64,000 nt of DNA from an uncultured Verrucomicrobiae bacterium (GCA_963824795.1 CAWGQU010000010.1:1215-65214), one strand, 5' to 3'; counted from the stretch's first letter, positions 1 to 64,000 are shown. The notes: a model not told the origin generated them from the letters alone. Program-made: numbers and translations.

Positions 1-792
1 GTCCTCTTTCTCGCCGCCTGGTTTGCCCGCCACGAAAAATCGAGCGGCAGTCTTTTGCAAGGCTTTCTGTTTCCGCTTCTGTTTGTCGGCATTTTGCTCG
101 TGCTCATTGTTTCCGAAGTAGATCTCGGAACAACGGCATTGATCGGTGCGACTACATTCGCTGTGATGTTTGTTGCCGGAACGAACCCCGGATTGCTCGG
201 TCTTCTTTCGTTAGGCGGAATCGGCGGCATTGCATTGATTGCGGCAAAAATGCCGGAACGCATGGCGCGACTCACCGCTTTCCGCGACCTCGAAGCGCAC
301 CAACAAAGCGATGGCCTTCAGCAAATGCAGGCGCTCATCGCCTGGGGCAGCGGAGGAATGGAAGGTCTCGGTCTCGGCAACGGTCGACAGAAGATGCTCT
401 ACCTTCCCTACGCACATACCGATTTCATTTTCCCGATCATCGGCGAAGAGCTCGGACTGCGCGTGAGCCTGCTCGTCGTTTTTCTATTCGTCATCATCAT
501 CGTTTGCGGAATGATGATCGCGCTGCATGCGAAGGATCGCTTTGGCCTGCTGCTCGCAACCGGCCTCGTGTCGCTGCTTGGCCTGCAGGCCGCGGTCAAT
601 ATCGGAGTGACGACTTCACTTTTGCCGAACAAGGGATTGCCATTGCCGTTCATCAGTTACGGCGGGTCGAATCTCGCGGCCTGCCTTTTCGGTGTGGGAT
701 TGCTTCTTAATATATATAGACAGGCGATTCTGGAACCAGTCGTGAACAAGAGACGCGTCGTCCTGCAAGCGCGCATCACACCAAGAATCTGA
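1..792 (+). CDS. ftsW: SEDS-family cell division protein FtsW, C-terminal part (5' end outside window)
   Basis: Frame 1 is open from base 1 (track ORF 55..792). SEDS motifs PYAHTDFIFPIIGEELG and LPNKGLPLPFISYGGS. Directly upstream of murG in a dcw-type cluster. Confidence 0.85.
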   Translation, partial: VLFLAAWFARHEKSSGSLLQGFLFPLLFVGILLVLIVSEVDLGTTALIGATTFAVMFVAGTNPGLLGLLSLGGIGGIALIAAKMPERMARLTAFRDLEAHQQSDGLQQMQALIAWGSGGMEGLGLGNGRQKMLYLPYAHTDFIFPIIGEELGLRVSLLVVFLFVIIIVCGMMIALHAKDRFGLLLATGLVSLLGLQAAVNIGVTTSLLPNKGLPLPFISYGGSNLAACLFGVGLLLNIYRQAILEPVVNKRRVVLQARITPRI

Positions 793-824
793 CCATTTAT
801 ATGCGTTCTGCATCGCGATTTATT

Positions 825-949
825 CTGGGGAGCGCACGCGCCTCGCGTGCACATTGCGGCGCCTCGCCGCAATGCGGTTTTTATCACTTCAAAACAAGTT
901 CGCGAAGGCGAGGGCGCCTTCGCCCGCACGCGGGGCGCGTGCGCTCCCC
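825..949. repeat. Family-A nested-palindrome intergenic element, copy 1 (ftsW-murG spacer)
   Basis: Outer arms CTGGGGAGCGCACGCGCCTCGCGTGC and GCACGCGGGGCGCGTGCGCTCCCC are reverse complements. Inner hairpins are ATTGCGGCG-CCT-CGCCGCAAT and GCGAAGGCG-AGGG-CGCCTTCGC. The same arms recur at 4365, 50851 and 57998. Confidence 0.9.
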
Positions 950-952
950 GGC

Positions 953-2056
953 ATGAACGCTGTTATCGCATGCGGAGGAACGGGCGGGCATTTGTTTCCC
1001 GGACTTGCTGTCGCGGAAGTGCTGCGCGGCCGCGGTCACGAAGTCATGCTTTTTATTTCCGAGAAGGAAATCGATTCGCTCGCAGTATCGACGCGCAATG
1101 AGTTTCGCCTTGAGAAACTGCCGAGTATCGGACTGCCTTCGCCGTTTTCGCCGGCGATCCTGGGATTCGTTAGGCGATTTAATGAGAGCCTGTCGCTTTG
1201 CCGCACGATTTATCGCACCTTCAAACCGAATCTCGTTTTGGGTATGGGCGGTTTTACATCGACCGCGCCGGTCATGGCGGCGCGTTTTCGTGGTGTTCCG
1301 AGTTTCATTCATGAATCGAATGCCATTCCCGGCCGTGCCAATCGCATGACAGCACGCATGGTGCGCGCTGTTCTTCTTGGCTTTAAAGAGTGCGCACAAT
1401 TTTTCCCGAAGGTCCGGACCGAAGTCACAGGCACGCCGATTCGCACGGATCTAAAGCGCATCGATCGCAAGAAAGCGCTGGAGCAACTCGGATTGCGGGA
1501 AAATTTGCAAACACTCCTTGTGATGGGCGGCAGTCAGGGCGCGACTGGAATTAATCAGGCCATTATCAAATCGATGGCGGCTTTTCGCGAGTTGCCCTTG
1601 CAGGTAATCCATCTGGCCGGCGCGCGCGACGAAACTCTGGTCGCGGACAATTATCGTCGAGAAAATATTCCGGCGTATGTCGCCGCGTTTCATCATCAAA
1701 TGGAAGCCGTTTACAGCGCGGCTGATTTTGCCATCGCGCGTTCCGGCGCGGCGAGTCTCGCCGAGCTCGCCGCTTTTTCGTTGCCGGCAATTCTAATTCC
1801 GTATCCGTTTGCGGCGGATAATCACCAGACGCGCAACGCGGAAATTTTCGCGCGCGCTGAGGCGGCCATCATTCTCAAAGAATCCGAACTTTCCGGTGAC
1901 GTGCTGGCGCGCAAAATCCGGGAATTGGTTGGCGATGCGAATAAACTACACCGCATGTCCGACAATTCTTCGCGCCTCGCTCCGAAAGATGCCGCCGATC
2001 TCGTGGTGAAGGCGATGGAAAAATATACTCAACCCGATCATGACGCGCGCACCTGA
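953..2056 (+). CDS. murG: UDP-N-acetylglucosamine--N-acetylmuramyl-(pentapeptide) pyrophosphoryl-undecaprenol GlcNAc transferase MurG
   Basis: N-terminal CGGTGGHLFPG signature and GT28 C-terminal domain. ATG at 953 is preferred over the track start at 854 because 854-949 is the family-A repeat. Confidence 0.9.
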   Translation: MNAVIACGGTGGHLFPGLAVAEVLRGRGHEVMLFISEKEIDSLAVSTRNEFRLEKLPSIGLPSPFSPAILGFVRRFNESLSLCRTIYRTFKPNLVLGMGGFTSTAPVMAARFRGVPSFIHESNAIPGRANRMTARMVRAVLLGFKECAQFFPKVRTEVTGTPIRTDLKRIDRKKALEQLGLRENLQTLLVMGGSQGATGINQAIIKSMAAFRELPLQVIHLAGARDETLVADNYRRENIPAYVAAFHHQMEAVYSAADFAIARSGAASLAELAAFSLPAILIPYPFAADNHQTRNAEIFARAEAAIILKESELSGDVLARKIRELVGDANKLHRMSDNSSRLAPKDAADLVVKAMEKYTQPDHDART

Positions 2057-4337: not shown

Positions 4338-4364
4338 AAGCCTGTAGGCGCACGGATGGAGGCC

Positions 4365-4490
4365 TCTGGGGAGCGCACGCGCCTCGCGTGCTGGTTGCGG
4401 CGCCTCGCCGCGACGATCCTTTTTCTCCTCCAGAAAAGTTCGCGATCGCGGGGGCGCGATCGGCCGCACGCGAGGCGCGTGCGCTCCCCA
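4365..4490. repeat. Family-A nested-palindrome element, copy 2 (murB-ddl spacer)
   Basis: Same outer arms as copy 1 and the inner GCGGCGCCTCGCCGC hairpin. It ends 8 nt before the ddl ATG. Confidence 0.9.
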
Positions 4491-4497
4491 GTAAGAC

Positions 4498-5424
4498 ATG
4501 AATATGCTCGCAGGAAAAAAGATCGCCGTCCTCATGGGTGGCCCCGGGACCGAGCGTGATGTTTCGCTCGCGACCGGTCGTGGTGTGGCGAAAGCGCTTT
4601 GCTCGTTAGGCGCAAATGTGACCGAAGTAGATGTGCGCGGTGCGGATTTTAGTTTGCCTAACGACACAGAACTCGCATTTATCTCGCTTCACGGAACGTT
4701 CGGCGAAGACGGTCAGGTCCAGCAAATTCTCGAAGATCGCGGAATTGCTTACACCGGAGAGGGAGTTGAAGGAAGCCGACTCGCCTTCGACAAAATCCGT
4801 TCGAAGGAAAAATTTCGCGAACACAACGTGACTACGCCGAACTGGCAGGTCATCAAAGCCGGACAAAATCCAACAATCCCGATTCCGATTGTCATCAAGG
4901 TGCCGCGCCAGGGATCGACGGTTGGCGTCTACATCGTAAAGTTGGAACGCGAGATCGCATCGTCACTGGAAGACGGCGCGAAATACGACTCGGAATTTTT
5001 GGTCGAGAAGTTTATTTCGGGACGCGAATTAACGATTGGGATTCTTGGCGATCAAGCGCTGCCCATTCTTGAAATCATTCCCAAAGGCGGATTTTACGAC
5101 TTCAAGAATAAGTATCCGTTTTTAAATCCAAGTGCGGGTGGCGGCGCACAGCATGTCTGTCCGGCAAACATTCCGGAAGACCAAACGCGTGCCATTCAAG
5201 ATCTCGCGCTGCGGGCCCATCGCTCGTTAGGGCTGAAAGTGTATTCACGCGTTGACGTCATTCTTCCCGAGGAGGGCGAGCCGAGTGTGCTTGAAGTCAA
5301 CACGATCCCGGGAATGACAGAAGCCAGCCTGCTCCCGGAAGCGGCAGCGGCGGCGGGAATTAGTTATGCGGATTTGTGCGCGCGCATCATCGAACTTTCT
5401 CGCGCAGCGCGACCAACAAAATGA
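4498..5424 (+). CDS. ddl: D-alanine--D-alanine ligase
   Basis: 308 aa with an ATP-grasp layout (IAVLMGGPGTERDVSL, HGTFGEDGQVQ, EVNTIPGMT). Sits in the dcw cluster. Confidence 0.9.
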   Translation: MNMLAGKKIAVLMGGPGTERDVSLATGRGVAKALCSLGANVTEVDVRGADFSLPNDTELAFISLHGTFGEDGQVQQILEDRGIAYTGEGVEGSRLAFDKIRSKEKFREHNVTTPNWQVIKAGQNPTIPIPIVIKVPRQGSTVGVYIVKLEREIASSLEDGAKYDSEFLVEKFISGRELTIGILGDQALPILEIIPKGGFYDFKNKYPFLNPSAGGGAQHVCPANIPEDQTRAIQDLALRAHRSLGLKVYSRVDVILPEEGEPSVLEVNTIPGMTEASLLPEAAAAAGISYADLCARIIELSRAARPTK

Positions 5425-6494: not shown

Positions 6495-6499
6495 GTGTA

Positions 6500-7714
6500 A
6501 TGGCGAGCAGTGATTTGTTGGTCGGTCTTGAAATTGGCACCTCGAAGATTTGCGTGGTGGTAGGGGAGAGCCGGCCCGACGGAACGATCAAGATTCTCGG
6601 AGTGGGTCAGGCGCCATCACGCGGTGTGCGTAAGGGCGAGATCGTCGATTTCGAGACTGCGATGAAATGCGTGCACGAAGCGGTTGTCGATGCCGAACAA
6701 AAAAGCGACGTCATGATTCGCAGCGTTTACGTCGGGGTGTCCGGCTCGCACATTCAAAGCTTTAACAATCGCGGCAGCGTCTCGCTCGCGGAGGATCGCG
6801 ACGAAATTGATGAGCAGGATATCGAGGACGTGAAGGTGAGCGCGCGCGAGGTCAGCATTCCTGCGCAGAATGCGTTTCTGCACTCGATCATTCAGCATTA
6901 TCACGTCGATGGGCAGGATGGCGTGCTTAACCCGGTCGGCATGCTCGGGCAAAGATTGGAAGCGGATTTCCATATCGTGCACGGCGTGCGGACGCGCATT
7001 CAAAACACGATTCGTTGCGTGAAAGAATTGCCGCTGGAAGTGGAGGATGTTGTTTTCAACGCGCTCGCCTCCGCGCAGGTGGTGCTCACGCAACACCAAA
7101 AAAATCTCGGCTCACTCGTCATCGATATCGGCGGCGGAACGACCGATTACATTTTGTATGTCGACGGCGCCGTGCGGCAGAGCGGCTGTCTCGCCGTCGG
7201 TGGCGATCACATCACGAACGACATTTCCATGGGATTGCGCATTCCGATGGCGCGGGCGGAGCGGCTGAAAATCGAAGAAGGCAGCGTCACTCTGGGAAAT
7301 TGTTTGCCTGGGGAGACGGTTTTACTGAAAGACGATTCCGGTTTTGCGGGGAAAGAAATCGAGCGCGAGACGCTCAACACGATCATTCATCTGCGCTTGC
7401 GTGAAACGTTCGAACTGCTCAAGCGTCAGATCGAAGAGGAATCGTTTATCAATTACATCGGCGAAGGAATTTTTATCACCGGTGGATGCAGTCATCTGCG
7501 TGGGATCGATCATCTCGCGGGAGATATTTTCGAGTTGCCGGCCCGCGTTTCGCACGCGCAAACCATGTCCGGCCTAACGAGTGCATTTGAAAATCCGCAA
7601 TTCTCGACGGCCATCGGTTTGATCAAATACGCACAGGCCGTGCAGTCGGATCGCGGCCGCCCACGACGCGGCTTCGGCCGAATCTTCGGCAGAATTTTCA
7701 ACGGTATGCGATGA
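6500..7714 (+). CDS. ftsA: Cell division protein FtsA
   Basis: 404 aa of the actin/HSP70 fold (LVGLEIGTSKICVVVGE, VIDIGGGTTD) with an amphipathic C-terminal tail. Confidence 0.9.
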   Translation: MASSDLLVGLEIGTSKICVVVGESRPDGTIKILGVGQAPSRGVRKGEIVDFETAMKCVHEAVVDAEQKSDVMIRSVYVGVSGSHIQSFNNRGSVSLAEDRDEIDEQDIEDVKVSAREVSIPAQNAFLHSIIQHYHVDGQDGVLNPVGMLGQRLEADFHIVHGVRTRIQNTIRCVKELPLEVEDVVFNALASAQVVLTQHQKNLGSLVIDIGGGTTDYILYVDGAVRQSGCLAVGGDHITNDISMGLRIPMARAERLKIEEGSVTLGNCLPGETVLLKDDSGFAGKEIERETLNTIIHLRLRETFELLKRQIEEESFINYIGEGIFITGGCSHLRGIDHLAGDIFELPARVSHAQTMSGLTSAFENPQFSTAIGLIKYAQAVQSDRGRPRRGFGRIFGRIFNGMR

Positions 7715-7741
7715 AAGAATACAGATGCAACTCCGCTATGC

Positions 7742-7823: not shown

Positions 7824-7869
7824 GCAATTTGTGCGGCAAGAAATTTTTGAAAACAGAAAGCAAAAATAA

Positions 7870-9294: not shown

Positions 9295-9312
9295 CGCTCG
9301 CTCAACGCGCGT

Positions 9313-15980: not shown

Positions 15981-18176
15981 GTGGCATTCGAGGACAACCA
16001 ACTGCTCTTCGGTTCCGATCCAGCACCGCGCATTGTGGCGATCGAGTTGGGCGAGACGGGGACGGTCAAGGTTTATCGCCGCGAGAAAGATGGGACGACG
16101 ATTTGCGATACGGAACCTTTTCATCCCTTCGTCTGGGCGGATGGCGACGTGGCCGACCTTGGCCTAACGAACGCGGAGAAACTTTCAGGCGACCTGAGAT
16201 ACAACTGGCTCGTCACCACAGATAGCTGGAAGGAATTAATCGCGCTGCGCAACGGCCTGAAAAAAGCGGGCCGCAGTTTTTTTGCCTTGAGCGATCCGGT
16301 GCAGCATTACCTCACGCACACGGGTCGAACACTTTTCAAACAGCTTCCGTTTGAAGAATTGCGCCGGTTACAGGTTGAAGTGCTTTCGCCATCGGGAGAA
16401 AGCGATCTCGCGGAAGCCTCGCAGAATCACATCGCGAGCATTGCGCTTTCCGATAATTCCGGTTGGGAAGAATTGATTGTCGTTGATCCAAAGAATGCCG
16501 GGGAATCCGAACATGCTGCTTTAAAACGCCTAACGAGTATCGTTAAAGAACGCGATCCCGATGTGATCGAGGGACACGATCTGTTTCGCTTCGATCTGCC
16601 CTATCTTGTCGCTCGTGCGCGGAAAGCGAAAACGAAACTGGATTGGGGAAGAAGTGGAGGATTTCTGCGCTCGCGCCCGTCGCGCCTGCAGATTGCGGAG
16701 AAAACGATCGATTACCCGAAGTTCAGCGTCGAAGGGCGACATTTCGTCGATACATTCTTGCTCGCGCAATTTTACGATGTTGGCCTGCGCAGCCTTTCCG
16801 GTTTCGAGAGAGCCGATGTCGCGCGGCACTTCGGTTTTTGCGAGAGCGAGGAAATTTCCTCGCTTACCGGCAGGGAATTGCAACGCGCATATCTGAGTGG
16901 AAGCGAAGAATTTCGAAAGCGCGCAATCTGCGCGGTGCACGAAACGCGTGCCGTCTCCGATCTCCTCAGTCCGAGCTATTTCATCCAGGCGCAGATTTTT
17001 CCTTATAACTATCAGGACGTGATTGTGCGCGGGAACGCCACGCGCATCAACGCGCTCTTCCTGCGCGAGTATTTCCGGCAGCGTCAATCGATTCCTGAGA
17101 TGCCGATGGTGCGCGGATTCGAAGGCGGTTACACCGATATTTTCTTCACCGGTGTCGCGCGCAACGTCTGGCATTGCGACATCGCGTCGCTTTATCCGTC
17201 GATTATGCTGGAGTTTGATTGCTTCCCAGCAACCGATCAGCTCCAGATCTTCCGGCATCTGCTTACCGACCTGCGCACATTCCGGTTGCAGGCGAAGGCT
17301 GACATGCGCGGCGCGAAAGAGCCAAAGCAGCAGCGCTATTTCCACGCGCTGCAAAACACGTTCAAGATCTTGATCAACAGCTTTTATGGTTATCTGGGTT
17401 TTGCGCAGGGAAATTTTGCGGATTTCGATGCGGCCGCACGGGTAACGCAAATCGGTCGCGATCTCCTGAAAAAAATGATCGATTGGCTCACGGCACAAGG
17501 CGCGCAAGTCATCGAGGTCGACACCGATGGAATTTATTTCGTTCCTCCAAAGGACAAAGACGCCGATAAGTTGCGCGACGAACTCGCGAAGGAATTACCC
17601 GCAGGAATCGAAGTCGAGTTCGACGAACAGTTTGACGCCATGTTCAGCTACAAGGCGAAGAACTACGCACTCCTGACGCGCGATGGCGAGGTCGTTATCA
17701 AGGGTGGCGCGTTGAAATCGCGGGGTCTCGAAAAATTCCAGCGCGTCTTCATGGAGGAAATGATCAAGCTTGTCATGCAGGGAAAACCCGAGGCGATCGG
17801 AATGTTGCGTGAAGATTTCGAACAGAAAATTCGCAAGCAGGAATTGCCGATTGATATGCTGATGAAAACCGACACGCTCCAGGATTCGCTCGAGAAGTAT
17901 CGTACCAAAATTGCCGGATCAGCACGCAATCGTGCCGCGGCTTACGAACTCGCCCTAACGAGCGGTCGCGCCTACAAACCGGGGGATCAGATCAGCTATT
18001 ACGTCAAGGCTACGCCCAAGAAAGTCGCCGCCTATGAAGCCGCGAAGCTCGTCAGCGAGTTTGACCCGCAAAACCGGGACGAAAACGTCGATTACTACAT
18101 CACCAAGCTTGCCGACCTGGTGAAAAAGTTCTCCACGTTCATCCCGGCTGCAGAACAGGAAACGCTTGCGCTCTAA
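15981..18176 (+). CDS. polB: Family-B DNA polymerase (Pol II-like)
   Basis: 731 aa with a GTG start. Motif A DIASLYPSIM, motif B KILINSFYGYLG, motif C VIEVDTDGIYF. Exo II-like GHDLFRFDLPYL. The Exo I DxE motif is not evident. Confidence 0.85.
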   Translation: MAFEDNQLLFGSDPAPRIVAIELGETGTVKVYRREKDGTTICDTEPFHPFVWADGDVADLGLTNAEKLSGDLRYNWLVTTDSWKELIALRNGLKKAGRSFFALSDPVQHYLTHTGRTLFKQLPFEELRRLQVEVLSPSGESDLAEASQNHIASIALSDNSGWEELIVVDPKNAGESEHAALKRLTSIVKERDPDVIEGHDLFRFDLPYLVARARKAKTKLDWGRSGGFLRSRPSRLQIAEKTIDYPKFSVEGRHFVDTFLLAQFYDVGLRSLSGFERADVARHFGFCESEEISSLTGRELQRAYLSGSEEFRKRAICAVHETRAVSDLLSPSYFIQAQIFPYNYQDVIVRGNATRINALFLREYFRQRQSIPEMPMVRGFEGGYTDIFFTGVARNVWHCDIASLYPSIMLEFDCFPATDQLQIFRHLLTDLRTFRLQAKADMRGAKEPKQQRYFHALQNTFKILINSFYGYLGFAQGNFADFDAAARVTQIGRDLLKKMIDWLTAQGAQVIEVDTDGIYFVPPKDKDADKLRDELAKELPAGIEVEFDEQFDAMFSYKAKNYALLTRDGEVVIKGGALKSRGLEKFQRVFMEEMIKLVMQGKPEAIGMLREDFEQKIRKQELPIDMLMKTDTLQDSLEKYRTKIAGSARNRAAAYELALTSGRAYKPGDQISYYVKATPKKVAAYEAAKLVSEFDPQNRDENVDYYITKLADLVKKFSTFIPAAEQETLAL

Positions 18177-19854: not shown

Positions 19855-20757
19855 ATGCTGCAGCAATATAACGAGAAGAACCGCGATCTGATCGTCAATA
19901 TCAACGGCCGCCTCGTGCATCGGGACGAGGCTGGCGTCAGTCCATTCGATTCCGCGGTGCAAGGTGGCGATGCCGTTTGGGAAGGATTGCGTTTATACGA
20001 CGGCAGGATTTTCAAACTCAAGGAACATCTCGAACGCCTGCGCCGATCCGCGACTGCTCTCTCGTTTGCGGAGATCCCGCCTAACGAGAAGATTGTCGAC
20101 GAAATCAAGCGCACCCTCGCGGCGAACAAAATGCGTGACGGCGTGCACATTCGCCTGACGTTAACGCGCGGAGTGAAAATCACTTCCGGGATGGATCCGC
20201 GCCTGAATCAATCAGGGCCGACCTTGATCGTGCTCGCCGAGCATAAGGCACCGGTTTACGCGAAGACAGGATTGAGGTTGATCACAAGTAGCTTTCGCCG
20301 GCCGCCGCCCGAGATTCTCGATCCGCAAATTCACCACGCCAACCTTCTCAACTCCATTCTCGCCAAGATCGAAGCGAACAACGCCGGCGCGGACGATGCG
20401 CTCATGCTCGATATTCATGGATTGATCGCGGAGACGAATGCCACGCACATTTTCGTCGTGCGAAATGGCGAAATTGCTACCAGTCGCGTCGTCGCCTGCC
20501 CGGAAGGAATCACGCGCGCGACCGTGATCGAGATTTGCGCGACCGAGAGAATACCGTGCTATGAAACAGATCTGAAACTCGACGAAGCGTATCGCGCGGA
20601 TGAAGTCTTTTGCAGCGGCACAATGGGCGAACTCGCAGGTATCACGCAGATCGACGATCAGCTCATCGGGAACGGCCAGGTAGGACCGATGACAAAACGA
20701 TTGAGCGAACTCTACGCGCAGCGCACCGCGAGTGAAGGTTTGCGTGTCGTAGAATAG
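19855..20757 (+). CDS. Class IV (fold type IV) PLP aminotransferase, branched-chain/D-amino-acid type
   Basis: 300 aa with typical class IV blocks (FDSAVQGGDAVWEGLR, EHLERLRRSA, HIRLTLTRG, ETNATHIFVV, GITR). Confidence 0.8.
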   Translation: MLQQYNEKNRDLIVNINGRLVHRDEAGVSPFDSAVQGGDAVWEGLRLYDGRIFKLKEHLERLRRSATALSFAEIPPNEKIVDEIKRTLAANKMRDGVHIRLTLTRGVKITSGMDPRLNQSGPTLIVLAEHKAPVYAKTGLRLITSSFRRPPPEILDPQIHHANLLNSILAKIEANNAGADDALMLDIHGLIAETNATHIFVVRNGEIATSRVVACPEGITRATVIEICATERIPCYETDLKLDEAYRADEVFCSGTMGELAGITQIDDQLIGNGQVGPMTKRLSELYAQRTASEGLRVVE

Positions 20758-22751: not shown

Positions 22752-22781
22752 GTTGGTTATTGGTTTGGATTGTTCGTTAGG

Positions 22782-33790: not shown

Positions 33791-33806
33791 TTCGTTAGGC
33801 GGCTGC

Positions 33807-42730: not shown

Positions 42731-43405
42731 TCACTCTTCGTTCTCCATCTCTTTGGCTTCTCCCGTGCGAATAAAGGTTTTCCCACTCGGGCAGAGTCGG
42801 AAAATTTCGCAGTGATGACAATCCGGCCGTCGCGCAAAGCAGCGCCGCCGACCGTGCCAGATAAGCCAGTGACTCCAATCTGTCCAATGCTCGCGCGGGA
42901 CGACTTTCATCAACTCCTGCTCGATTTTTTCCGGATCTTTCTGTTTCGTTAGGCGTAATCGTTGCGAAAGGCGAATGACATGCGTGTCCACAACGATGCC
43001 TTCATCGACCCCAAACGCGTTGCCGAGAACGACGTTCGCCGTTTTGCGTCCGACACCGGGGAGGGCGTGCAATTCCGCCATCGTGTTTGGAACTTTGCCG
43101 CCATGTTTTTCCACGATTGCTCTGGCCGCGCCCTGAATGCTCTTCGTCTTGTTGCGGAAGAATCCTGTCGGTTGAATCGCGCGCTCTAATTCGGCCTTCG
43201 GCGCGCGCGCATAGTCGGCTGCTGTCTTGTACTTCGCGAAAAGCGACGGCGTAACCATATTCACGCGCTTGTCGGTGCATTGCGCCGAAAGAATTGTCGC
43301 CACCAGAAGCTGCAGCGGGTTTTTGAAATTTAATTCGCAATGCGCGTTGGGATAAACCTTCGGGAATGTCCGAACGAGCTGCGCAACACGTTCGCGAACC
43401 GTCAT
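42731..43405 (-). CDS. nth: Endonuclease III
   Basis: HhH-GPD (LPGVGRKTANVVL) and a C-terminal 4Fe-4S cysteine cluster C-x6-C-x2-C-x5-C. Confidence 0.9.
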   Translation of the reverse strand: MTVRERVAQLVRTFPKVYPNAHCELNFKNPLQLLVATILSAQCTDKRVNMVTPSLFAKYKTAADYARAPKAELERAIQPTGFFRNKTKSIQGAARAIVEKHGGKVPNTMAELHALPGVGRKTANVVLGNAFGVDEGIVVDTHVIRLSQRLRLTKQKDPEKIEQELMKVVPREHWTDWSHWLIWHGRRRCFARRPDCHHCEIFRLCPSGKTFIRTGEAKEMENEE

Positions 43406-50164: not shown

Positions 50165-50797
50165 TCAGTCAACGCGATTTGGTGTCTCGACTTTCTCGAG
50201 CGCGCGCCAGAAATACCACGCGGCGACGGAGCGATAAGGACGGAATTTTTCTCCGAGCCGCAATAACTGTTTTGGCGTCGGCAATTTTCTGCGACCAAAA
50301 GTTTTCGCGAAACCTTTCTGCACGCCGTAATCCGACACCGGCCAGACATCCAATCGGCCGAGATCGAAAAGAAGCAGCATCTCTACGGTCCATCTTCCGA
50401 TCCCGCGTACGGTCGTCAGCCGCTCGATGATTTCTTCGTCGCTCATCTTCGCCAGAGCGCGTCCGGTCGGCACGGTGCCGTCGAGAGTTTTCGCGGCCAG
50501 ATCTTTCAAGGCGCGCGTTTTGGAACCGGAGAGACCCGCGGAGCGAAATGTTTCGTCGGGCGTGGCCAGAATCAATTTTGGATCGAGCCACTTTCGTCGC
50601 GGATAAAGGGCTTTGACGCGTCCCCAGATCGTCGCCGCGGCTTTACCGCTCAACTGCTGGTAAGCGATTGATTCCGCCAAAGCATCGAATGGCCTAACGA
50701 GTGGTGCGATGTTTTTCTCAAAGCGCCGCGCGCGCGCGATTAATTCCGCCATGCGCGGATCGGTCTTGGCGAGATGTTGTTCCGGTCTCAACGGCAT
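50165..50797 (-). CDS. DNA-3-methyladenine glycosylase II family (AlkA-like HhH-GPD)
   Basis: LTTVRGIGRWTVEMLLLF HhH motif and a catalytic Asp context (WPVSDYGV). Confidence 0.8.
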   Translation of the reverse strand: MPLRPEQHLAKTDPRMAELIARARRFEKNIAPLVRPFDALAESIAYQQLSGKAAATIWGRVKALYPRRKWLDPKLILATPDETFRSAGLSGSKTRALKDLAAKTLDGTVPTGRALAKMSDEEIIERLTTVRGIGRWTVEMLLLFDLGRLDVWPVSDYGVQKGFAKTFGRRKLPTPKQLLRLGEKFRPYRSVAAWYFWRALEKVETPNRVD

Positions 50798-53082: not shown

Positions 53083-53163
53083 CGTTCTCGGAGAGCCTGA
53101 AGGCAACATCCGTTCATTGCGCCTAACGAATGGTAGAATTTGCTCTTGCGCGGACGGCAAGAA

Positions 53164-53230: not shown

Positions 53231-53250
53231 GGCAACATTTTTTGCTGCGC

Positions 53251-55026
53251 CTAACGGATATTCGTTAGTCTTCGGTCTTCGCCATACGGGAATACTTCAA
53301 GAATTTCTCCAGCCCGGAGTTTTCCCTGCAGTTCGCGCCAAAAATCCGCAGCGAACAAATCGGCGTGCTGCTCGAACAATGCCGTGCGCGCGGACTCCGG
53401 AAGCCCGAGGAAGCGTGGAAACTCTTCAGGAAAAATATCGTTGTCGCGCACGGAGAACCACGGCTCGGCCGACATTTCTTCCTCGTATGTCGTCGCCTGC
53501 GGGAGATCGCGAAAATTACAATCGGTCAGGAATGTCAATTCATCGTAGTCGTAAAAGACAACGCGATCGTGCCGCGTAACGCCAAAATTTTTCGTCAACA
53601 GATCGCCCGGAAAAATGTTTGAGGCGGCAAGGTCCTTGATTGACTGGCCATAATCGCGTCCGGCTTTCGCCTGCGCGCAGGATTCGTGTTCTGCGAAGAA
53701 AAGATTCAGGGGACGAACGCGGCGCTCCACATAGGCCTGCCCGATAACCACATCGTCACCATCTAATCGCACGGTCGCAGCCGCATTTTGACGCATGTCT
53801 TCGAGCAGCGCCGGTTCAAATCGATTTCGCGCAATGCGCAAATGTTCGAACTCGTGCGCTTCAACGAGGCGTCCACCGCGATCGTGCTCGAAAACGAGAC
53901 GATATCTCCGCATCACATCGGCTCGGCTCGCATCTTTCGGATAATCGAAGCGATCCTTGATCAGTTTGAAAACGACATCGTAGCTCGGCAACGTGAAGAC
54001 GAGCATCACCATTCCGGGAGTGCCTTCCGCGATGGCAAAACGGTCATTCGAATTTTTGAGGTGCGCGACGAAGTTCCGGTAGAACTCGGTCTTGCCGTGT
54101 CGCGGATGACCGATGGAATTGTAGAGATCGTTCAGGCGTTTGCGCGGCATGAGCAAACGCAGATAACGCACGAGATCGTAAGGACGCCTCGATTCGACGC
54201 GAAAGTAAGCGCGCGTAAAGGAGAACAGAATGGCGAGATCATTTTCGCCGATAAGGATGGCGTCGAGTGCGACGCCCTCGTCATTTTCGTGACGTAAACA
54301 AAATGCCACTGCCAGGGGTTCGTCTTCGTTGCGAAAAACCCGGCCAACCAAATACGCTCCGCGACCGCGATAGAATGCACTGCCGATCATCTCGAGCTTC
54401 CAATTCGAAGCGGGCATTGAATCGGTTGGCGTAAATGCAGCTTGAATGCGCAGCGCGCCCAGCCGCGTTGCTTCGGAAAGATTGCGCCAGCATTTCTCCT
54501 CAAAACCGCCGCCTTCCGCATCCGTCGCCATTTGCCTGAGCAGCTCCGGCAACGAATTGCCGGAATAACGCCGTTGAACATCCGTCCGCGCACTCGTCGG
54601 AGGCGCATCGAAGTCGGTATCCACAAACTCGATCGATTGATCGACGCCTTCAGTGGCAAAAACGCGACGCGTCAGTGAATTAAAAAAGCTCTCCGCGATT
54701 TCCCATTCCGAAGAATCCGCGATGAGCGAAGAATAGACTGCCTTGATCGCAGCCCACACGCTTCGATCGGAGAGACGCTCGCCCATAAGATCTCTGATCC
54801 GACTCGTAAGACCATCGAGCACCGCGCTGTAAAGTTTGAGGCGCTCTGTCGCATCGGCATACGATTCGACCCATGCGCGGGCGAGAAAGCGTGCGCGCGC
54901 GCGTCGCGTGATTTGGTGAAAGCGTTCCTGGTAATCGAGAAATGACTGGCGCGCAGTTTGCGCGCAGAGCGCAGCGAGACGGCTGTCGGTTAGCGCTGCG
55001 GCGGAGGATGAAGCGGATTCGTCCAC
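53251..55026 (-). CDS. aceK: Isocitrate dehydrogenase kinase/phosphatase
   Basis: 591 aa with AceK-specific blocks (FPGDLLTKNFGVTRHDRVVFYDYDE). GTG start. Confidence 0.9.
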   Translation of the reverse strand: MDESASSSAAALTDSRLAALCAQTARQSFLDYQERFHQITRRARARFLARAWVESYADATERLKLYSAVLDGLTSRIRDLMGERLSDRSVWAAIKAVYSSLIADSSEWEIAESFFNSLTRRVFATEGVDQSIEFVDTDFDAPPTSARTDVQRRYSGNSLPELLRQMATDAEGGGFEEKCWRNLSEATRLGALRIQAAFTPTDSMPASNWKLEMIGSAFYRGRGAYLVGRVFRNEDEPLAVAFCLRHENDEGVALDAILIGENDLAILFSFTRAYFRVESRRPYDLVRYLRLLMPRKRLNDLYNSIGHPRHGKTEFYRNFVAHLKNSNDRFAIAEGTPGMVMLVFTLPSYDVVFKLIKDRFDYPKDASRADVMRRYRLVFEHDRGGRLVEAHEFEHLRIARNRFEPALLEDMRQNAAATVRLDGDDVVIGQAYVERRVRPLNLFFAEHESCAQAKAGRDYGQSIKDLAASNIFPGDLLTKNFGVTRHDRVVFYDYDELTFLTDCNFRDLPQATTYEEEMSAEPWFSVRDNDIFPEEFPRFLGLPESARTALFEQHADLFAADFWRELQGKLRAGEILEVFPYGEDRRLTNIR

Positions 55027-55119: not shown

Positions 55120-56368
55120 TTAATGAAACTGTTCCTCTTCGGTGGAACCGTGTAACGCCGTGGTCGAAGATTGTCCGGCTGCGATTACCTGCGCGACATC
55201 GTCGAAATAGCCGGTGCCGACTTCGTGTTGATGTTTTGTCGCGGTGTAGCCTAACGACTCAGCGGCGAATTCGGCTTCCTGCAATTCGGAATACGCTTCC
55301 ATCCCGCGATCCCGATATCCGCACGCGAGGTTGAACATGCTGTAATTGAGCGCGTGAAATCCCGCAAGCGTGACGAATTGGAACTTGTATCCCATGGCGC
55401 CGAGCTCCCGCTGAAATTTTGCGATCGTCGCGCTATCGAGTTTTTTCTTCCAATTGAATGAGGGCGAACAATTGTAGGCCAAAAGTTTGTCGGGAAATTG
55501 CGCATGGAGGCTATCGGCAAATTTCTTTGCCTCGTCGATATTCGGCGCCGCCGTCTCACACCAAATCATGTCCGCGATGGGTGCGTAACTGAGCCCGCGC
55601 GCAATCGCCTGATCGATTCCCGCGCGCACGCGATGAAATCCTTCCGGTGTTCGCTCGCCGGTGAGAAAAACGCGGTCGCGTTCGTCCGCATCAGTCGTTA
55701 GGAGCGCAGCCGCGTTTGCGTCGGTCCGCGCAAGAATAACAGTCGGAACATTGCTGACATCGGCGGCAAGCCGCGCCGCGGTCAAATGTGCCAGGGCGGT
55801 TCGCGTGGGGACAAGAACCTTGCCGCCCATGTGTCCGCACTTTTTTTCACTCGCAAGTTGATCTTCGAGATGCACGGCAGCAGCGCCGGCCTCGATCATC
55901 GCTTTCACTAATTCGAAGACGTTGAGCGGTCCGCCAAAGCCTGCTTCGGCATCCGCAACGATGGGAACGAACCAATCGATTTTGTTTTGGCCTTCGGAAT
56001 GGTCGATCTGGTCGGCGCGTTGCAACGCCTGATTGATTCGCTTCACCACCGCCGGGACGCTGTTCGCCGGATACAAACTTTGATCCGGATACATGTGGCC
56101 CGAGAGATTTGCATCCGCAGCGATCTGCCAGCCGCTAACGTAAATCGCCTTCAAACCGGCCTTCACTTGCTGAACCGCCTGATTGCCGGTGAGCGCGCCC
56201 AGCGCATTGATGAACGGCTCGGTTTGCAAAGATTGCCAGAGTTTCTCTGCGCCTCGACGCGCGAGGGTGTGCTCGACCACGACGCTGCCGCGCAATCTCT
56301 CGACATCGCCTAACGAGTAATTGCGCACCACGCCATTCCATCGCGGATTGTTGTCCCAATTCGAGGTG

Positions 56369-58147: not shown

Positions 58148-59335
58148 TCACTGTTCAATTCGTTTCAAAAGAAATGCGGCTCCGACAAAAGTGATTAACA
58201 CGCCGAAACAGAGCGCGGCGAGATCAATCGTGAGATAAGAAAAATCGGCGCGATACAAATTCACGAGGCGGAAAGCGCGGCAAAAGTGAGTGAGGGGAAA
58301 CAGTTCGGCAAAGTAGCGGATCAATTTGGGAAGCTGATTTAACGGCGCGAATGCACCGGAAAGAACGAAGACAGGCAGAAGAAAGAAAACGGAAAATTGA
58401 ATGGCCTGCGTTTGCGTGCGGGAAAAGGCCGAGATGAGAAGGCCCAGGCCTAACGAGCACAGCAGAAACAGCAGGCAGATGACCCCAAGAATCGTGTGCT
58501 GGTGAAACTTGACGTGAAAATGCCAGCCCATCAGGAGGATGATCATGAGAATGAGGAGAATGGAGATCGCGAGGTAGGGCAGGATTTTTCCGATCACGAT
58601 TTCGCTGCGACGTAACGAAGTGACCATTAATTGATACAGCGTTCCCGATTCGCGCTCGCGCGCGATCGTGCACGCCATCAGTGTGACGGTAAGCAATTGC
58701 AGAATCAGGCCGATAACGCCCGGCGTGACGTATTCGATGAAACGAGATTTCGGATTGTAAAGAACCTTGGATTTTACCGTCCACGGCGTCATGGCAGAGA
58801 CAAATTGTTTGCGGATTTTTTCCGGAAGTTTCTTGGCCAGATCGAAAACTTCTTCCGGTAGCTCGTCGATCATGACCTGGCGCTCGTCCATTTGGAATTT
58901 GCCCAGCGTCTCCTGCAGACTTCCTTCCAATTGTTGTGCGGTGTTGGTGTCCGCGCCGTCGAGGTAAAGAGGCATCGGTTTCGGATCGCCTTTGTCCAGA
59001 CTTGCGCTCCAACCGGGCGGGACGATCAAGGCCGCTTTCACACCTTTTCCAAGCAGATCGGTCTCGCCTCCGACCTGCGGCGATTGCAGGCGCCAGGCAA
59101 AAGTCTTATCCGTCAGGGCAAGATCGACGAAGCGCTGACTGCGCGGCGTTTTATCGGCATTAATCAAGAGCGCCGGAACATTGGTGAGATCGCCGATCTC
59201 GAAAGCATGGCCGAAGATTAATGTGAAGACCGGCGGCAAAATCAGCAAAAGAACAAGAACGCGGCGATCGCGATAAATGTGCAGGAACTCTTTGTAGGCT
59301 ACGCTCCCGATTGCGCCTAACGAGGGTATTCTCAT
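58148..59335 (-). CDS. ABC-2 type transporter permease
   Basis: The N-terminal TM helix is separated from 5 C-terminal TM helices by a large loop. ATG at 59335 overlaps the ATPase stop (ATGA). Confidence 0.8.
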   Translation of the reverse strand: MRIPSLGAIGSVAYKEFLHIYRDRRVLVLLLILPPVFTLIFGHAFEIGDLTNVPALLINADKTPRSQRFVDLALTDKTFAWRLQSPQVGGETDLLGKGVKAALIVPPGWSASLDKGDPKPMPLYLDGADTNTAQQLEGSLQETLGKFQMDERQVMIDELPEEVFDLAKKLPEKIRKQFVSAMTPWTVKSKVLYNPKSRFIEYVTPGVIGLILQLLTVTLMACTIARERESGTLYQLMVTSLRRSEIVIGKILPYLAISILLILMIILLMGWHFHVKFHQHTILGVICLLFLLCSLGLGLLISAFSRTQTQAIQFSVFFLLPVFVLSGAFAPLNQLPKLIRYFAELFPLTHFCRAFRLVNLYRADFSYLTIDLAALCFGVLITFVGAAFLLKRIEQ

Positions 59336-60282
59336 TGCGGTAACGGTTTGAGTAAAGTGGTGTAGCCCTGCGAATAGGCGGTGAAAACGTCCTCCATATC
59401 GGCTTCGACCCAGCGTTCGCCGAGCCATTTGATATTGGGACACGGCCAATGTTGTTTCCAATGGGCGAGCAATTTTTCGGGCTCGGCGGCATAAAGGCGC
59501 AGGCTTCCACTGCGCAGCGAAACGCCGAGAATATTCGGCTCCTCCCGCAGCCTAACGAGCGCTTCCATGACCGGCTCCGCGTCGATTTCCAAAAGTTTCG
59601 TGTTGAAACTTTCTTTCAATGCGCGCGGCGAAGCTTTCGCGAGCAGATGTCCGCGCTCAATAAAACCAACTTCGGTGCAACGTTCCGCTTCATCCATATA
59701 ATGCGTTGTGACAAAGATAGTGATTCCGTCGTGGCTCAAGTCGTAGAGTAAATCCCACATCTGCTGCCGATGCACCGGATCGAGTCCCGAGGTTGGTTCA
59801 TCGAGAAAAAGTAGCGGCGGATTGTGCACGAGCGCGCAACCGAGCGCGAGCAGTTGGCGCATGCCGCCGGAAAGAGTGCCAGCTGGCGTGTCGCGATTTG
59901 CTTCCAGATCGGTCAAGCGCAGCAGATTGTTGATTCGCTTTTCCAGTTCCCCGCGCGGCACGCGGCACGCGCCACCAAAGAAACGCATGTTTTCGAGGAC
60001 GGTAAGATCTGGATATAAACTGAAACGTTGCGCGACATAACCGAACTTCGTCCGCACGTCGCGGCGTTGTTTCCAAACATCCTTGCCGGCGACTGTCGCT
60101 TTGCCTCGCGTGGGACTGGTCAACCCGCAAAGCATTCGCATTGTCGTCGTCTTGCCTGCGCCGTTAGCTCCGAGAAAACCAAAGATGGCGCCAGAATCGA
60201 TAGAAAACGAGAGGTCTTCGACCGCGTGTACGTGGCCGTAGAACTTCGATAATCGATCGAGCACTATGACGGGTTCACTCAT
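59332..60282 (-). CDS. ABC transporter ATP-binding protein
   Basis: Walker A GANGAGKTTT, signature LSGGMRQ and Walker B LLFLDEP. The start at 60282 is preferred. Confidence 0.9.
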   Translation of the reverse strand: MSEPVIVLDRLSKFYGHVHAVEDLSFSIDSGAIFGFLGANGAGKTTTMRMLCGLTSPTRGKATVAGKDVWKQRRDVRTKFGYVAQRFSLYPDLTVLENMRFFGGACRVPRGELEKRINNLLRLTDLEANRDTPAGTLSGGMRQLLALGCALVHNPPLLFLDEPTSGLDPVHRQQMWDLLYDLSHDGITIFVTTHYMDEAERCTEVGFIERGHLLAKASPRALKESFNTKLLEIDAEPVMEALVRLREEPNILGVSLRSGSLRLYAAEPEKLLAHWKQHWPCPNIKWLGERWVEADMEDVFTAYSQGYTTLLKPLPQ

Positions 60283-60349: not shown

Positions 60350-61391
60350 ATGGAAACGACATATCACCGCGGTTTACCCGTCATTCTGAGTTTGTTTTTC
60401 GGGGCCACAATCTGCTTTGGAAATTCGATCGCCAGGGCCGATCCGGTCTCGGAAATGGCGAGCTTTTCCGTTTTTGGAAATGTCGATCTCGCGCAACTGG
60501 CCGCTACCGATCTGAAAACGGCCCACGGTCCGCCGATGAACAATCCGCGTTTTCTTTCGGTGCAAAGTTGCTACGTCGTGCCCCGATCGCCGGCGCAGGA
60601 GATCGCGGCAATGCGGAAATGGAATCCCACGTCGCATCGCGAGCTGAAGGTTTATTTGCATTCCGACATTCCCGGTTCCGCCAGTCCGGAAAATTTTTCG
60701 CGCTTGCGCAATGCGCCAGACAACGACGCCGTGCGCTCGCTCGTGGACAAAACAAAAAAACTTTCTTCCGATCTTCAGATCAGCAAGGAAGAGGCAAAGA
60801 AATTTACTCCGGCAAATGATAGCGGCGGCGCGATGCCGGCATCAGTTGCTTCGTTTTGGATGAACGTGTTGAGCGGTCGCGCGCGGGCTTTCGCTTCGGG
60901 TGGCACAGCAGCGGAGGCGCCATACGATCATACGGGGCAAGCCATTCGGCCTAACGAGGAATTGAATGGTCTCTTACGCGAACAGGGAAAAATCCGTCAG
61001 CAATTTTCTTCGTTCCTTGGCAACACCGGAATCGGTCACGGCGCTGGTGGAAAGCCGGAGATGTATTGGGAATTGCTCTCGGCGGACGACGAGGGTGTCG
61101 TGACTTTGGGCGCGGCTTATAACCGCGCTGGCCCGGGTGGAACTTATCAGGCGGCGGATACGCTGTATTATGCGAGCGGCGGTTATTACGTCTCGCTGAC
61201 ACTTTTTCAGATGTGGCCAATCGTGGTTGGCGGGAAACCGTCCACATTGGTCTGGCGCGGTGATTTCGTTTCCGCCGCGCAGTTAGCCACGCTTGCACGG
61301 CGTGGAACGGCTCGCTTCCGAATCGGCCATGATGAAAGACATCACAAAAGCCGTGACATTCTATCGGCGCGATACATCATCGGGCCGTTAG
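60350..61391 (+). pseudogene. Paralog of secreted protein X (module 2) with an apparent 1-nt insertion near 61286
   Basis: Homology to 52021..53082 continues in the +1 frame after ..GDFVSAAQL (PRLHGVERLASESAMMKDITKAVTFYRRD vs GGLDRLFAGGEMVKEAARAAKLFRGD) and ends at TAG 61389-61391. Confidence 0.6.
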
Positions 61392-62368: not shown

Positions 62369-62458
62369 CTGTAGCGGCGGTCTATGACCGTCGCATTCTT
62401 TTCGCCGTCACGACGCTGCTCGAGAAACAAGTGCGACGGTCATAGACCGCCGCTACAG
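62369..62458. repeat. Family-C hairpin element, copy 2
   Basis: CTGTAGCGGCGGTCTATGACCGTCGC ... GCGACGGTCATAGACCGCCGCTACAG. Confidence 0.9.
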
Positions 62459-62464
62459 AAGAGA

Positions 62465-63262
62465 TCAGTAGAGATCGCTGCGGCGATGTTCGAAAACGGG
62501 CATGCGCTGTCGTACGTCAGCAATCACTTCCACCGATAACTCGGCGTTGATGAGCTCTTCGCGATCCGTCGAGCCCGCGGCGATTGTTACGCCGTATGGA
62601 TCGATGATCGCGGAAGATCCGCAGAATGGCACACGATCATCCTTGCCGACGCGGTTCGACAAAATCACGTAACTTTGATTTTCGATCGCGCGTGCCACGG
62701 CCAACGTGCGCAAATGTTCCACTCGCGGAAATGGCCAGGCTGAAGAAATGAGGAAGACATCGACATTCTTTTTCGCGGCAAGAGTTCGATACAACTCCGG
62801 GAATCGAAGGTCGTAGCAAATGCTAAGACCAAAATGAAACCCGGCGAAAGCGAAACTGGTCAGCTCGTTGCCGCGGGAAAAGCATTTCTGCTCGTCAATG
62901 GGCGCGAGAGCGAAGAGATGACACTTCCTGTATTTAGCCACGATTTCGCCATTCGCATCGATCATTACCTGCGAGTTGTAGATGGTTTCCTCCGCGCGCT
63001 CAGAAACGCCGCACACAATCGCGATGGAAAATTTCTTCGCCATTTCCTTCAGACTGGGAACCGCGCCCCTGGTCCATTCCGTCGCGCATTTTTGAATAAC
63101 CGGCAGCGAATAGCCGGTATCGGTCATTTCCGGAAAGACGATGAGCTCGCTGCCGGCATCTTTCGCACGCGAAACGAATTCGCGAACCTTGTTGAGGTTC
63201 GCGTCCAGATCGCCCAGGACGCACGCGATTTGAGCAACAGCAATCTTCATCAACTTCGTCAA
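62465..63262 (-). CDS. Carbon-nitrogen hydrolase (nitrilase superfamily)
   Basis: Glu-Lys-Cys triad context (FPEM, KCHLF, SICYDLRFPE). 265 aa. Confidence 0.85.
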   Translation of the reverse strand: MTKLMKIAVAQIACVLGDLDANLNKVREFVSRAKDAGSELIVFPEMTDTGYSLPVIQKCATEWTRGAVPSLKEMAKKFSIAIVCGVSERAEETIYNSQVMIDANGEIVAKYRKCHLFALAPIDEQKCFSRGNELTSFAFAGFHFGLSICYDLRFPELYRTLAAKKNVDVFLISSAWPFPRVEHLRTLAVARAIENQSYVILSNRVGKDDRVPFCGSSAIIDPYGVTIAAGSTDREELINAELSVEVIADVRQRMPVFEHRRSDLY

Positions 63263-63264
63263 TT

Positions 63265-64000
63265 CTAACGCAAAGATTTATCAAGTCGTCCGATCTTCCG
63301 TGTTTCCGGCCAATACTTTGCGACACCAAGCACGACCAGGATCGTACCGATCCCGCCAGCAACAACGGAGACAACAGGACCGAATAGGGCAGCCGTTAAT
63401 CCCGATTCGAGCGCACCAAATTCATTTGAGGTGCCGATAAAAATATTATTCACGGAAGAGACGCGACCACGCATTTCGTCGGGAGTGATGAGCTGCACGA
63501 TCGATCCGCGAATGATCACGCTCACGCTATCGAACGCGCCGGCGAGAAAAAGCATCCCTAACGAGAGCCAGAACGCTTTCGATAATCCGAAAATGATGGT
63601 GGCGATTCCAAATCCAGTGACACACCAGAGAAGAGATTTACCGGCATGACGCATCGGTGGGAGATAAGCGACGACCAGAGCCATGATGAATGCACCAACC
63701 GCCGGCGCCGCGCGCAGCCAGCCGAGCCCGATCGGTCCAACGTGCAGGATTTGATCGGCGAAAATCGGCAGCAAGGCTGTCGCCCCGCCGAGCAGCACCG
63801 CGAACAAATCGAGCGTAATCGTTGCGAGGATGACATTCTTGCTAAAGACAAAACGCATTCCGGCCATGACACTTTGCCATGGCGTTTCGGTGCTGTGATT
63901 GCGTTTTTGCGTGCTGCGACGAATCGGCAGAATCAGGAGGAAGAATATGAAAGCAGTCACGGCGTCGATCGCATAGACCTGCGCGAAACCGACCTTGGCC
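63265..64000 (-). CDS. MFS transporter, C-terminal half (5' end outside window)
   Basis: The frame is open to the window edge. At least 6 TM helices typical of an MFS C-domain. Confidence 0.7.
   Translation of the reverse strand, partial: AKVGFAQVYAIDAVTAFIFFLLILPIRRSTQKRNHSTETPWQSVMAGMRFVFSKNVILATITLDLFAVLLGGATALLPIFADQILHVGPIGLGWLRAAPAVGAFIMALVVAYLPPMRHAGKSLLWCVTGFGIATIIFGLSKAFWLSLGMLFLAGAFDSVSVIIRGSIVQLITPDEMRGRVSSVNNIFIGTSNEFGALESGLTAALFGPVVSVVAGGIGTILVVLGVAKYWPETRKIGRLDKSLR

Follow-up and report, generated by a model that had tools for sequence, protein, structure and literature searches.

The 64,000-nt stretch of an uncultured Verrucomicrobiae bacterium analysed here (GCA_963824795.1, CAWGQU010000010.1:1215-65214; hereafter the window) carries an extreme excess of a single 9-mer, TCGTTAGGC, which consists of the 8-mer TCGTTAGG and a following C. 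This 9-mer (word 1) is a recognition word that is maintained genome-wide and symmetrically on both strands by a force acting on the DNA sequence itself. Selection at the DNA level had already been proposed from the letters of the window (hereafter the sequence-only reading), and the occupancy of permissive sites, the reading frames and the flanks uphold that proposal by excluding the edge of a repeat, a peptide motif and codon bias as sources of the excess.

Exact matches of TCGTTAGG number 35 in the window, 18 on the + and 17 on the - strand, in agreement with the count made by eye. The positions given with that count are right except for two slips (20090 should read 20080, and 59326 should read 59316), and the near-copies named along with them are present at 25388, 44229 and 53250. 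In 100 dinucleotide-preserving shuffles the 8-mer occurred 0.85 times on average and four times at most, which amounts to a 41-fold excess. An order-3 Markov model predicts 1.03 copies of the 8-mer in the window and 0.38 of the 9-mer, of which 28 were seen; a proper background model, suggested earlier as a check, leaves the ratio for the window far above 1. The two are the commonest 8-mer and 9-mer of the window, and the word is by far the top outlier among its 7- to 10-mers. The excess is 40- to 200-fold, with densities of 5-26 copies per 10 kb (0.5-2.6 per kb) in relatives and up to 30 copies in 11.5 kb.

The base after TCGTTAGG is C in 28 of the 35 window copies (about 27 had been claimed), G in five, and A and T in one each, while the preceding base is never A. 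No further position is conserved within 25 nt on either side, as expected from the claim that the word is not the edge of a longer repeat. Logos of 101 copies from close relatives and of 219 copies from a distant clade return the identical 9-mer; the pooled logos of the relatives add weak flank preferences 2 nt upstream and in an A-rich stretch 2-4 nt downstream, and in window and relatives alike conservation around the word ends at about 11 nt. One-mismatch variants of the 8-mer are barely in excess in the window (39 versus about 29 expected). Because such variants are hardly enriched and the flanks are not conserved, we regard the word as sharp and free-standing. It is not a palindrome.

Comparison with FtsZ-centred loci of 80 species representatives (designated by L numbers) places the window in the Verrucomicrobiota, order Chthoniobacterales, so that the guess of a lineage related to Planctomycetes, Verrucomicrobia and Chlamydiae was sound. 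The nearest relative has 97% FtsZ identity, and all relatives are metagenome-assembled genomes (MAGs) of uncultured bacteria from soil or peat. A neighbour-joining tree of FtsA and FtsZ yields four clades, which differ in the density of word 1 and in the occupancy of compatible sites:

Clade A (GC content 0.60-0.63; the L068-L080 group): 8-26 copies per 10 kb, occupancy 50%
Clade C (the window, L001-L005 and L007): 5-7.5 copies per 10 kb, occupancy 39-41%
Clade B (L006-L015 and others): 0.5-3.3 copies per 10 kb, occupancy 8%, still 16-fold over expectation
Clade D (the large Udaeobacter-like clade): about 0 copies per 10 kb, occupancy 1.7%

The identical 9-mer is kept across deep divergence, down to FtsZ identities of 63-66%. 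Its sites are conserved far beyond their surroundings, as is evident from the 9.3 kb division and cell-wall cluster of the window (55-9294; ftsW, murG, a murC-murB fusion, ddl, ftsQ, ftsA, ftsZ), aligned with six relatives at 71-94% nucleotide identity. Three of these relatives have kept all six word sites intact but just 22% of 8-mers, and three of the six sites persist in all six relatives, compared with 1% of 8-mers. The invariant S-G-L-T-S-A of FtsA is encoded with GGC CTA ACG AGY in word-rich lineages and with CTG ACC TCN elsewhere. Word-forming codons are likewise confined to word-rich lineages at R-S-L-G-A and L-P-N-D-T of Ddl, L-S-L-G-G of FtsW and F-V-R-R of MurG. Gains or losses of the word by a single base are visible, e.g. 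CCTAACGA versus CCTGACGA at 4657, and several members of clade D retain a relic of word 1 at the R-S-L-G-A site of ddl.

Within the window, 32 copies lie in 21 unrelated genes (13 in sense and 19 in antisense orientation) and three are intergenic. All four stop-free frames are occupied, giving S-L-G, [F/L]-V-R, x-L-T-x and P-N-[D/E], and the two frames that give TAG or TAA are empty, exactly as the sequence-only reading had described. It was also correct in that a near-copy supplies the stop codon of aceK. The individual copies are as follows.

208..215, + strand: ftsW, sense, TCG TTA GGC (S-L-G); intact in six of six close relatives and in clade A
1167..1174, + strand: murG, sense, TTC GTT AGG (F-V-R); intact in six of six close relatives
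4603..4610, + strand: ddl, sense, S-L-G; half of an inverted pair 54 bp apart; site occupied in nearly every clade
4657..4664, - strand: ddl, antisense, CCT AAC GAC (P-N-D); one-base variant CCTGACGA in L001, L005 and L079
5224..5231, + strand: ddl, sense, S-L-G; next base G
7573..7580, - strand: ftsA, antisense, GGC CTA ACG AGT (G-L-T-S)
16163..16170, - strand: family-B DNA polymerase gene, antisense, G-L-T-N
16529..16536, - strand: family-B DNA polymerase gene, antisense, R-L-T-S
17954..17961, - strand: family-B DNA polymerase gene, antisense, A-L-T-S
20080..20087, - strand: class IV aminotransferase gene, antisense, P-N-E
22774..22781, + strand: intergenic
23715..23722, + strand: MacB/FtsX-type permease gene (itself on the - strand), antisense, G-L-T-T
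24116..24123, + strand: MacB/FtsX-type permease gene, antisense, P-N-D
24221..24228, + strand: MacB/FtsX-type permease gene, antisense, P-N-E
24619..24626, - strand: MacB/FtsX-type permease gene, sense, F-V-R
25066..25073, - strand: MacB/FtsX-type permease gene, sense, L-V-R
25550..25557, + strand: MacB/FtsX-type permease gene, antisense, P-N-E
26418..26425, + strand: serpin gene, antisense, P-N-E
28517..28524, + strand: acyl-CoA dehydrogenase gene, antisense, A-L-T-T
29857..29864, + strand: enoyl-CoA hydratase/3-hydroxyacyl-CoA dehydrogenase gene, antisense, P-N-E
33792..33799, + strand: intergenic, in the 16 nt that separate the PhoU_div gene from the PHO4 gene
36373..36380, + strand: hypothetical gene of 468 amino acids, antisense, P-N-E
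37600..37607, + strand: same hypothetical gene of 468 amino acids, antisense, P-N-E
40011..40018, + strand: FemAB-like/GNAT gene, sense, S-L-G
42946..42953, + strand: HhH-GPD glycosylase gene, antisense, R-L-T-K
50693..50700, - strand: second HhH-GPD gene, sense, L-V-R
53122..53129, - strand: intergenic, between two convergent genes
53249..53257, - strand: near-copy CCGTTAGGC, which supplies aceK with its stop codon TAG; a second near-copy, TCGTTAGTC, at 53262 on the + strand, faces it
55250..55257, - strand: isocitrate lyase gene, sense, S-L-G
55695..55702, + strand: isocitrate lyase gene, antisense, L-L-T-T
56309..56316, - strand: isocitrate lyase gene, sense, S-L-G
58449..58456, - strand: ABC-2 permease gene, sense, S-L-G
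59316..59323, - strand: ABC-2 permease gene, sense, S-L-G
59551..59558, - strand: ABC ATPase gene, sense, L-V-R
60950..60957, - strand: DUF6268 gene, antisense, P-N-E
63557..63564, - strand: MFS transporter gene, sense, S-L-G; next base G

The codons imposed by the word are indeed uncommon in the window, as had been suspected (TTA 5.5% of Leu codons, CTA 3%, AGG 3% of Arg codons, CCT 9% of Pro codons). Given the amino-acid sequences and the codon usage of the window, 0.89 coding copies are expected and 32 are found; the 8-mer is present at 32 of the 78 synonymously compatible peptide positions (41%), and all 11 P-N-[D/E] positions of the window carry the word. The frequencies of the peptides themselves also differ between clades: in word-rich sets P-N-[D/E] occurs 4.2-10.3 times in 10,000 residues (window 5.7), as opposed to about 1.3 times in clades B and D, and S-L-G 16.4 times in clade A and 2.8 times in clade D. 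These rates were derived from the occupancy counts, and the loci compared are largely syntenic. Overall the tripeptides encoded by the word are 4-8 times commoner in word-rich clades, which indicates that the word has altered protein sequences. The force acting on the word overrides codon preference and even the choice of amino acids. Known uptake sequences about double the frequency of their tripeptides (PMC2817400). In clade A the intergenic share is modestly raised, with 17% of the copies outside called genes at loci of which two that were checked are 7-13% non-coding.

Word 1 is not restricted to the loci around ftsZ. A metagenome scan for close direct pairs recovered 18 clearly word-rich contigs (81 kb, 113 copies) with mutually unrelated genes, among them those for SMC, an S1/P1 nuclease, a permease, a TPR protein and an O-antigen ligase. 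Because such contigs bear unrelated genes, we conclude that the word is spread genome-wide.

A second, unrelated word, AAGATCGACA(A/T) (word 2), is found in clade D and in L017, where it is likewise free-standing and occurs on both strands and in all six frames. The loci that carry it include L017, L025, L028, L034, L039, L041, L042, L069, L075 and further loci of clade D. It contains GATC and TCGA. In clade D and L017 it occupies 59% of the compatible sites (72 of 122, with 7.9 expected), and in the window it is at background (2 of 21). Both words are interleaved on one contig in L028, L069 and L075, and word 2 fills 83% of its compatible sites there. The distribution of the two words is most simply explained by an ancient word 1 that would have been lost, or would be decaying, in some lineages, and a word 2 that would have arisen in another. 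It is also conceivable that the same few permissive sites were repeatedly used in convergence, instead of an ancient word 1.

The spot directly before the ftsZ start shows both words in equivalent positions. The last 20-30 nt before the start hold a tandem pair of the dominant word of the lineage: CCTAACGA-nnn-CCTAACGA-n-ATG in clade A (in L072, L073, L074, L079 and L080 at 9981-9999) and AAGATCGACA-acgga-AAGATCGAC-ATG in clade D, where word 2 overlaps the A of ATG. A tandem word pair is also found at this spot in L028, L069, L075 and others. The pre-ftsZ spacer of the window is A-rich in place of the word pair.

Orientation is balanced within single loci. Eight clade A loci of 11-21 kb hold 94 copies on the + and 100 on the - strand (12/9, 11/19, 15/16, 9/8, 11/12, 9/8, 12/13 and 15/15), and the 18 metagenome contigs 56 and 57. 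In the window, the orientation of the copies has no relation to GC skew, which is the comparison that had been suggested as a check on a Chi- or KOPS-like role and turned out negative. Replication polarity was considered and rejected, as runs and GC-skew tests gave no replichore signal. The spacing of copies is Poisson-like in the window (coefficient of variation 1.01), and in some dense loci the copies are more regularly spaced than expected by chance (L068 and L069, p < 0.001).

What reads the word is less certain than its existence. Our tentative preference, judged from the sequences, is that TCGTTAGGC acts as a self-DNA tag of the uptake-sequence type, read by a type IV filament or competence receptor. 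We favour it because every hallmark that gave a clear outcome at the sequence level is present, with the exception of terminator placement. As in the uptake signal sequences (USS) of Pasteurellaceae and the DNA uptake sequences (DUS) of Neisseriaceae, whose words measure 9-12 nt, a short asymmetric word is found about once per kb on both strands, far above chance, with a free-standing core that is read in several frames within genes and makes the corresponding tripeptides more frequent. To our knowledge, biased uptake and recombination, as in USS and DUS, is the sole well-documented source of a 40- to 200-fold excess of an asymmetric 9-mer in genes. Known USS and DUS give the DNA that bears them a large advantage in uptake or transformation.

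Under such a mechanism word-bearing double-stranded DNA would be bound by a sequence-specific receptor, which would most likely belong to a type IV filament or competence apparatus, and the DNA of kin would be preferentially taken up and recombined. Mutations that create the word would be over-transmitted and those that destroy it under-transmitted, a molecular drive by which the word would come to fill synonymous and tolerant positions as well as short spacers. Following a change of the receptor, the old word would decay, for which clade B and the relics at ddl are candidates, and a new one would be built, as may have happened with AAGATCGACA in the Udaeobacter-like clade. A genome with both words would then be in transition or possess two receptors. 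With slightly greater reserve than for the tag itself, we suggest that the Chthoniobacterales, including the abundant Udaeobacter-like lineages of soils, may take up DNA in a sequence-specific way by two or more unrelated tags, among them TCGTTAGGC and AAGATCGACA, which can share a genome. If this is true, two-tag uptake would be the first uptake-sequence system outside Proteobacteria, with receptor switching or several receptors, and would amount to a kin-recognition network for gene exchange in soil.

Several observations weigh against an uptake tag. We know of no precedent among uptake sequences for two unrelated words in one genome. A Pfam search of 50 open reading frames (ORFs) found no competence gene in the 64-kb window, which belongs to a contig of 66,090 bp, and natural transformation is undocumented for Verrucomicrobiota in the literature found. 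The orientation of the window copies is clustered in four blocks (+, -, +, -) between 208 and 63564, with 10 runs versus 18.5 expected (z = -2.9), and it follows AT skew when this is taken over 5 kb (p = 0.002); these runs are only partly explained by gene strand, and the sense/antisense runs alone are not significant in a hand calculation. A phage structural module bears the word at host-like density (see below). About half of the known DUS and USS sit in terminators, often as inverted pairs (bioRxiv 10.1101/2025.10.24.684340). By contrast, a scan of the 44-64 kb stretch for terminator-like hairpins found none that includes a copy of the word, and where two copies lie close together they are mostly direct repeats in short spacers, separated by 10-33 nt.

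Genes of a potential uptake apparatus are few among the sequences at hand. Motif scans of all loci for DprA, ComEA, PilB/T and prepilins recovered three prepilin ORFs and nothing else, and scans of the word-rich contigs for uptake-apparatus genes gave no match. The three prepilin-type genes (GFTLIE motif, 151-152 amino acids) lie directly downstream of ftsZ in L007 (11549-12007), L069 (11548-12003) and L019 (7680-8135), and they match the Verru_Chthon cassette pilin-like families weakly. The occurrence of such genes in the order is only permissive for uptake.

We also have to consider, as an unlikely alternative, that the word marks self-DNA inside the cell or acts as a signal for recombination, in the manner of Chi but without polarity. 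A helicase-nuclease or defence nuclease would read it and halt the degradation, or promote the repair, of word-bearing DNA; selection would favour a high and even density, and phages of these hosts would copy the word. Phage DNA lends this alternative a little support. Among at least 157 stretches recovered by four word-pair scans over 2.9 million viral contigs (IMG/VR), one is truly word-rich, L093 (IMGVR_UViG_3300036819_000104, 1-12120), with ten copies of TCGTTAGG in 12 kb versus 0.22 expected. It encodes a terminase, a portal protein, a head protease and a major head protein, and its GC content is clade-A-like. Its word density fits a long-resident prophage and equally a protective self-marker. 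Nearly all of the other viral stretches listed are chance matches or tandem repeats, and a single word-rich stretch among at least 157, from four scans that were not all exhaustive for single copies, speaks against a marker that phages would copy. The very sharp motif, the more even than random spacing in dense loci and the identity of the 9-mer down to 63-66% FtsZ identity would also suit a self-marker. Against it stand the absence of any orientation skew (94:100 and 56:57), the excess, which is at the level of uptake sequences and not the few-fold excess of Chi, and the second unrelated word in the same genome, which would need a second such system.

A relation to a DNA methyltransferase is improbable, more so than a self-marker. 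Here the word would be a target or part-target of an orphan methyltransferase or of a linked repair or exchange system, and its abundance would be tied to methylation, as has been proposed for the cyanobacterial octamer HIP1 (highly iterated palindrome). The hyperabundance in genes, the conservation at orthologous sites and the clade variants are shared with HIP1 (PMC4390886). Word 2, with its GATC and TCGA, would be compatible with such a role; word 1 is non-palindromic and without a known methylation core, and the window showed no methyltransferase gene. In E. coli, mismatch repair of the context-specific Vsr type is known to yield small word excesses only, not 40-fold ones.

For a polar word of chromosome architecture that guides FtsK or RecBCD by replication direction, such as the FtsK-orienting polar sequences (KOPS), the architecture-imparting sequences (AIMS) or a strongly skewed Chi, the probability is very small. 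An over-represented 8-9-mer and the four orientation blocks of the window would be in line with it. However, KOPS/AIMS and polar Chi are disfavoured because orientation is balanced within single loci of 11-21 kb, each of which is expected to lie on one replichore, and because it is not linked to GC skew; the density is moreover several times that of known polar words. Of the two families of words between which the sequence-only reading left the choice open, the anatomy of USS and DUS is recovered and that of Chi and KOPS is not. That the word is a by-product, whether of the edge of a mobile repeat, of one abundant peptide, of biased codon or dinucleotide usage, or of an artefact of assembly or adapters, has a negligible probability, with unconserved flanks, four frames on two strands, 32 copies versus 0.89 from codon usage and the use of rare codons, and an artefact is excluded because the word stands in frame at orthologous sites in the assemblies of many independent projects. 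The remaining probability belongs to some other process.

Beyond the division cluster, the window carries ordinary metabolic, transport and regulatory genes, and no recombination-motor or methylase gene was seen in its annotation. One ORF at 2040-4337 joins MurC (Mur ligase domains) with MurB (FAD-binding and MurB_C domains). A homology search with Ddl returned metagenomes or MAGs throughout its best 120 matches. Rfam gave zero matches in the window, and the 92-nt tRNA-Gly that ARAGORN places at 45057-45148, within miaA on the opposite strand, is probably spurious.

The window also contains longer repeats. An element resembling repetitive extragenic palindromes (REP) or miniature inverted-repeat transposable elements (MITE), with arms CTGGGGAGCGCACGCGCCTCGCGTGC..., is present in four intergenic spacers as facing pairs with about 85-115 bp between the partners (827/940, 4368/4480, 50853/50938 and 58000/58102). 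A hairpin repeat of about 100 bp, GTCATCCCGAGCGnAnGCGAGGGACCTCACGA, occurs at 7745/7792, 9387, 19761, 23359/23379, 29794 and 50102/50147 as well as upstream of ftsZ in many relatives, and it superficially resembles the Ssn-related hairpin repeats of Neisseria and other phyla. The string CATCCCGAG, enriched in L038 and the window, was considered as a third word or dialect and dropped, as its apparent excess arises because it belongs to this hairpin repeat. A terminator-like hairpin, GCGGCGGTCTATGACCGTCGC, followed by a T-rich tail, forms facing pairs at two convergent gene ends (51947-52010 and 62374-62453).

Full-text literature searches turned up neither a use of the word in this sense nor a link between uptake sequences and Verrucomicrobia, Chthoniobacter or Udaeobacter, and the earlier remark that no description of such a word was known for this lineage agrees with these searches. 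In the literature found, uptake sequences are described for Pasteurellaceae and Neisseriaceae only, the two families to which a survey of late 2025 still confines them (bioRxiv 10.1101/2025.10.24.684340). Either sequence-specific recognition of self-DNA arose anew in a group that is dominant in many soils, or another process writes a 9-mer into 40-50% of the permissive coding positions and reshapes proteins on the way. Both cases open gene exchange to concrete tests in bacteria that are difficult to grow. The two words, with clades in gain, decay and coexistence, represent a natural experiment for models of drive versus selection, and the word can serve as a practical marker to assign metagenomic contigs, and possibly prophages, to these lineages.

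Among known systems, the REP, MITE or Ssn type consists of longer intergenic hairpin elements and differs from word 1, of which 32 of 35 window copies are genic. The NTS/Ssn-related repeats are abundant and tied to natural transformation in Neisseria; they are intergenic hairpins of about 30 nt, in contrast to a free-standing and mostly genic 9-mer (PMC11893778). Chi (E. coli GCTGGTGG and its equivalents), KOPS and AIMS share with word 1 that they are short, asymmetric and over-represented, and they are read by DNA-processing motors. E. coli Chi is strongly co-oriented with replication. These words are skewed to one replication strand at a few-fold excess, and KOPS and AIMS switch their strong skew at the origin and at dif, whereas word 1 is unskewed, balanced within loci of 11-21 kb and in 40- to 200-fold excess. 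HIP1 (GCGATCGC) is, like word 1, hyperabundant, genic, conserved at orthologous sites and variable between clades, and its function, recently linked to gene transfer, is still debated. However, the HIP1 sequence is palindromic and known orphan methyltransferases act on it, whereas word 1 is asymmetric, without a known methylase link and without a methyltransferase gene in the window.

The DUS of Neisseriaceae (GCCGTCTGAA and its dialects) resemble word 1 in density, sharpness, lineage-specific distribution and conservation at orthologous sites, and the Chthoniobacterales possess prepilin-type genes, the DUS receptor being the minor pilin ComP. DUS dialects are one or two bases apart, whereas words 1 and 2 share nothing; DUS often form inverted pairs in terminators, and no ComP-like receptor was identified for word 1. 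The USS of Pasteurellaceae (core AAGTGCGGT) have in common with word 1 a non-palindromic 9-nt core whose flanks tend weakly to A/T, a density near one per kb with copies on both strands, a mostly genic position in several frames, raised tripeptides, a spacing more even than random and perhaps the family-level variants. Word 1 is unrelated to them in sequence and phylum and was not found in terminator hairpins, its effect on tripeptides is stronger (4-8 fold versus about 2 fold), and a second, unrelated word is present in some genomes. At the genomic level word 1 shows the same phenomenon as USS and DUS; phylum, sequence, the lack of the terminator habit and the two-word genomes are what sets it apart.

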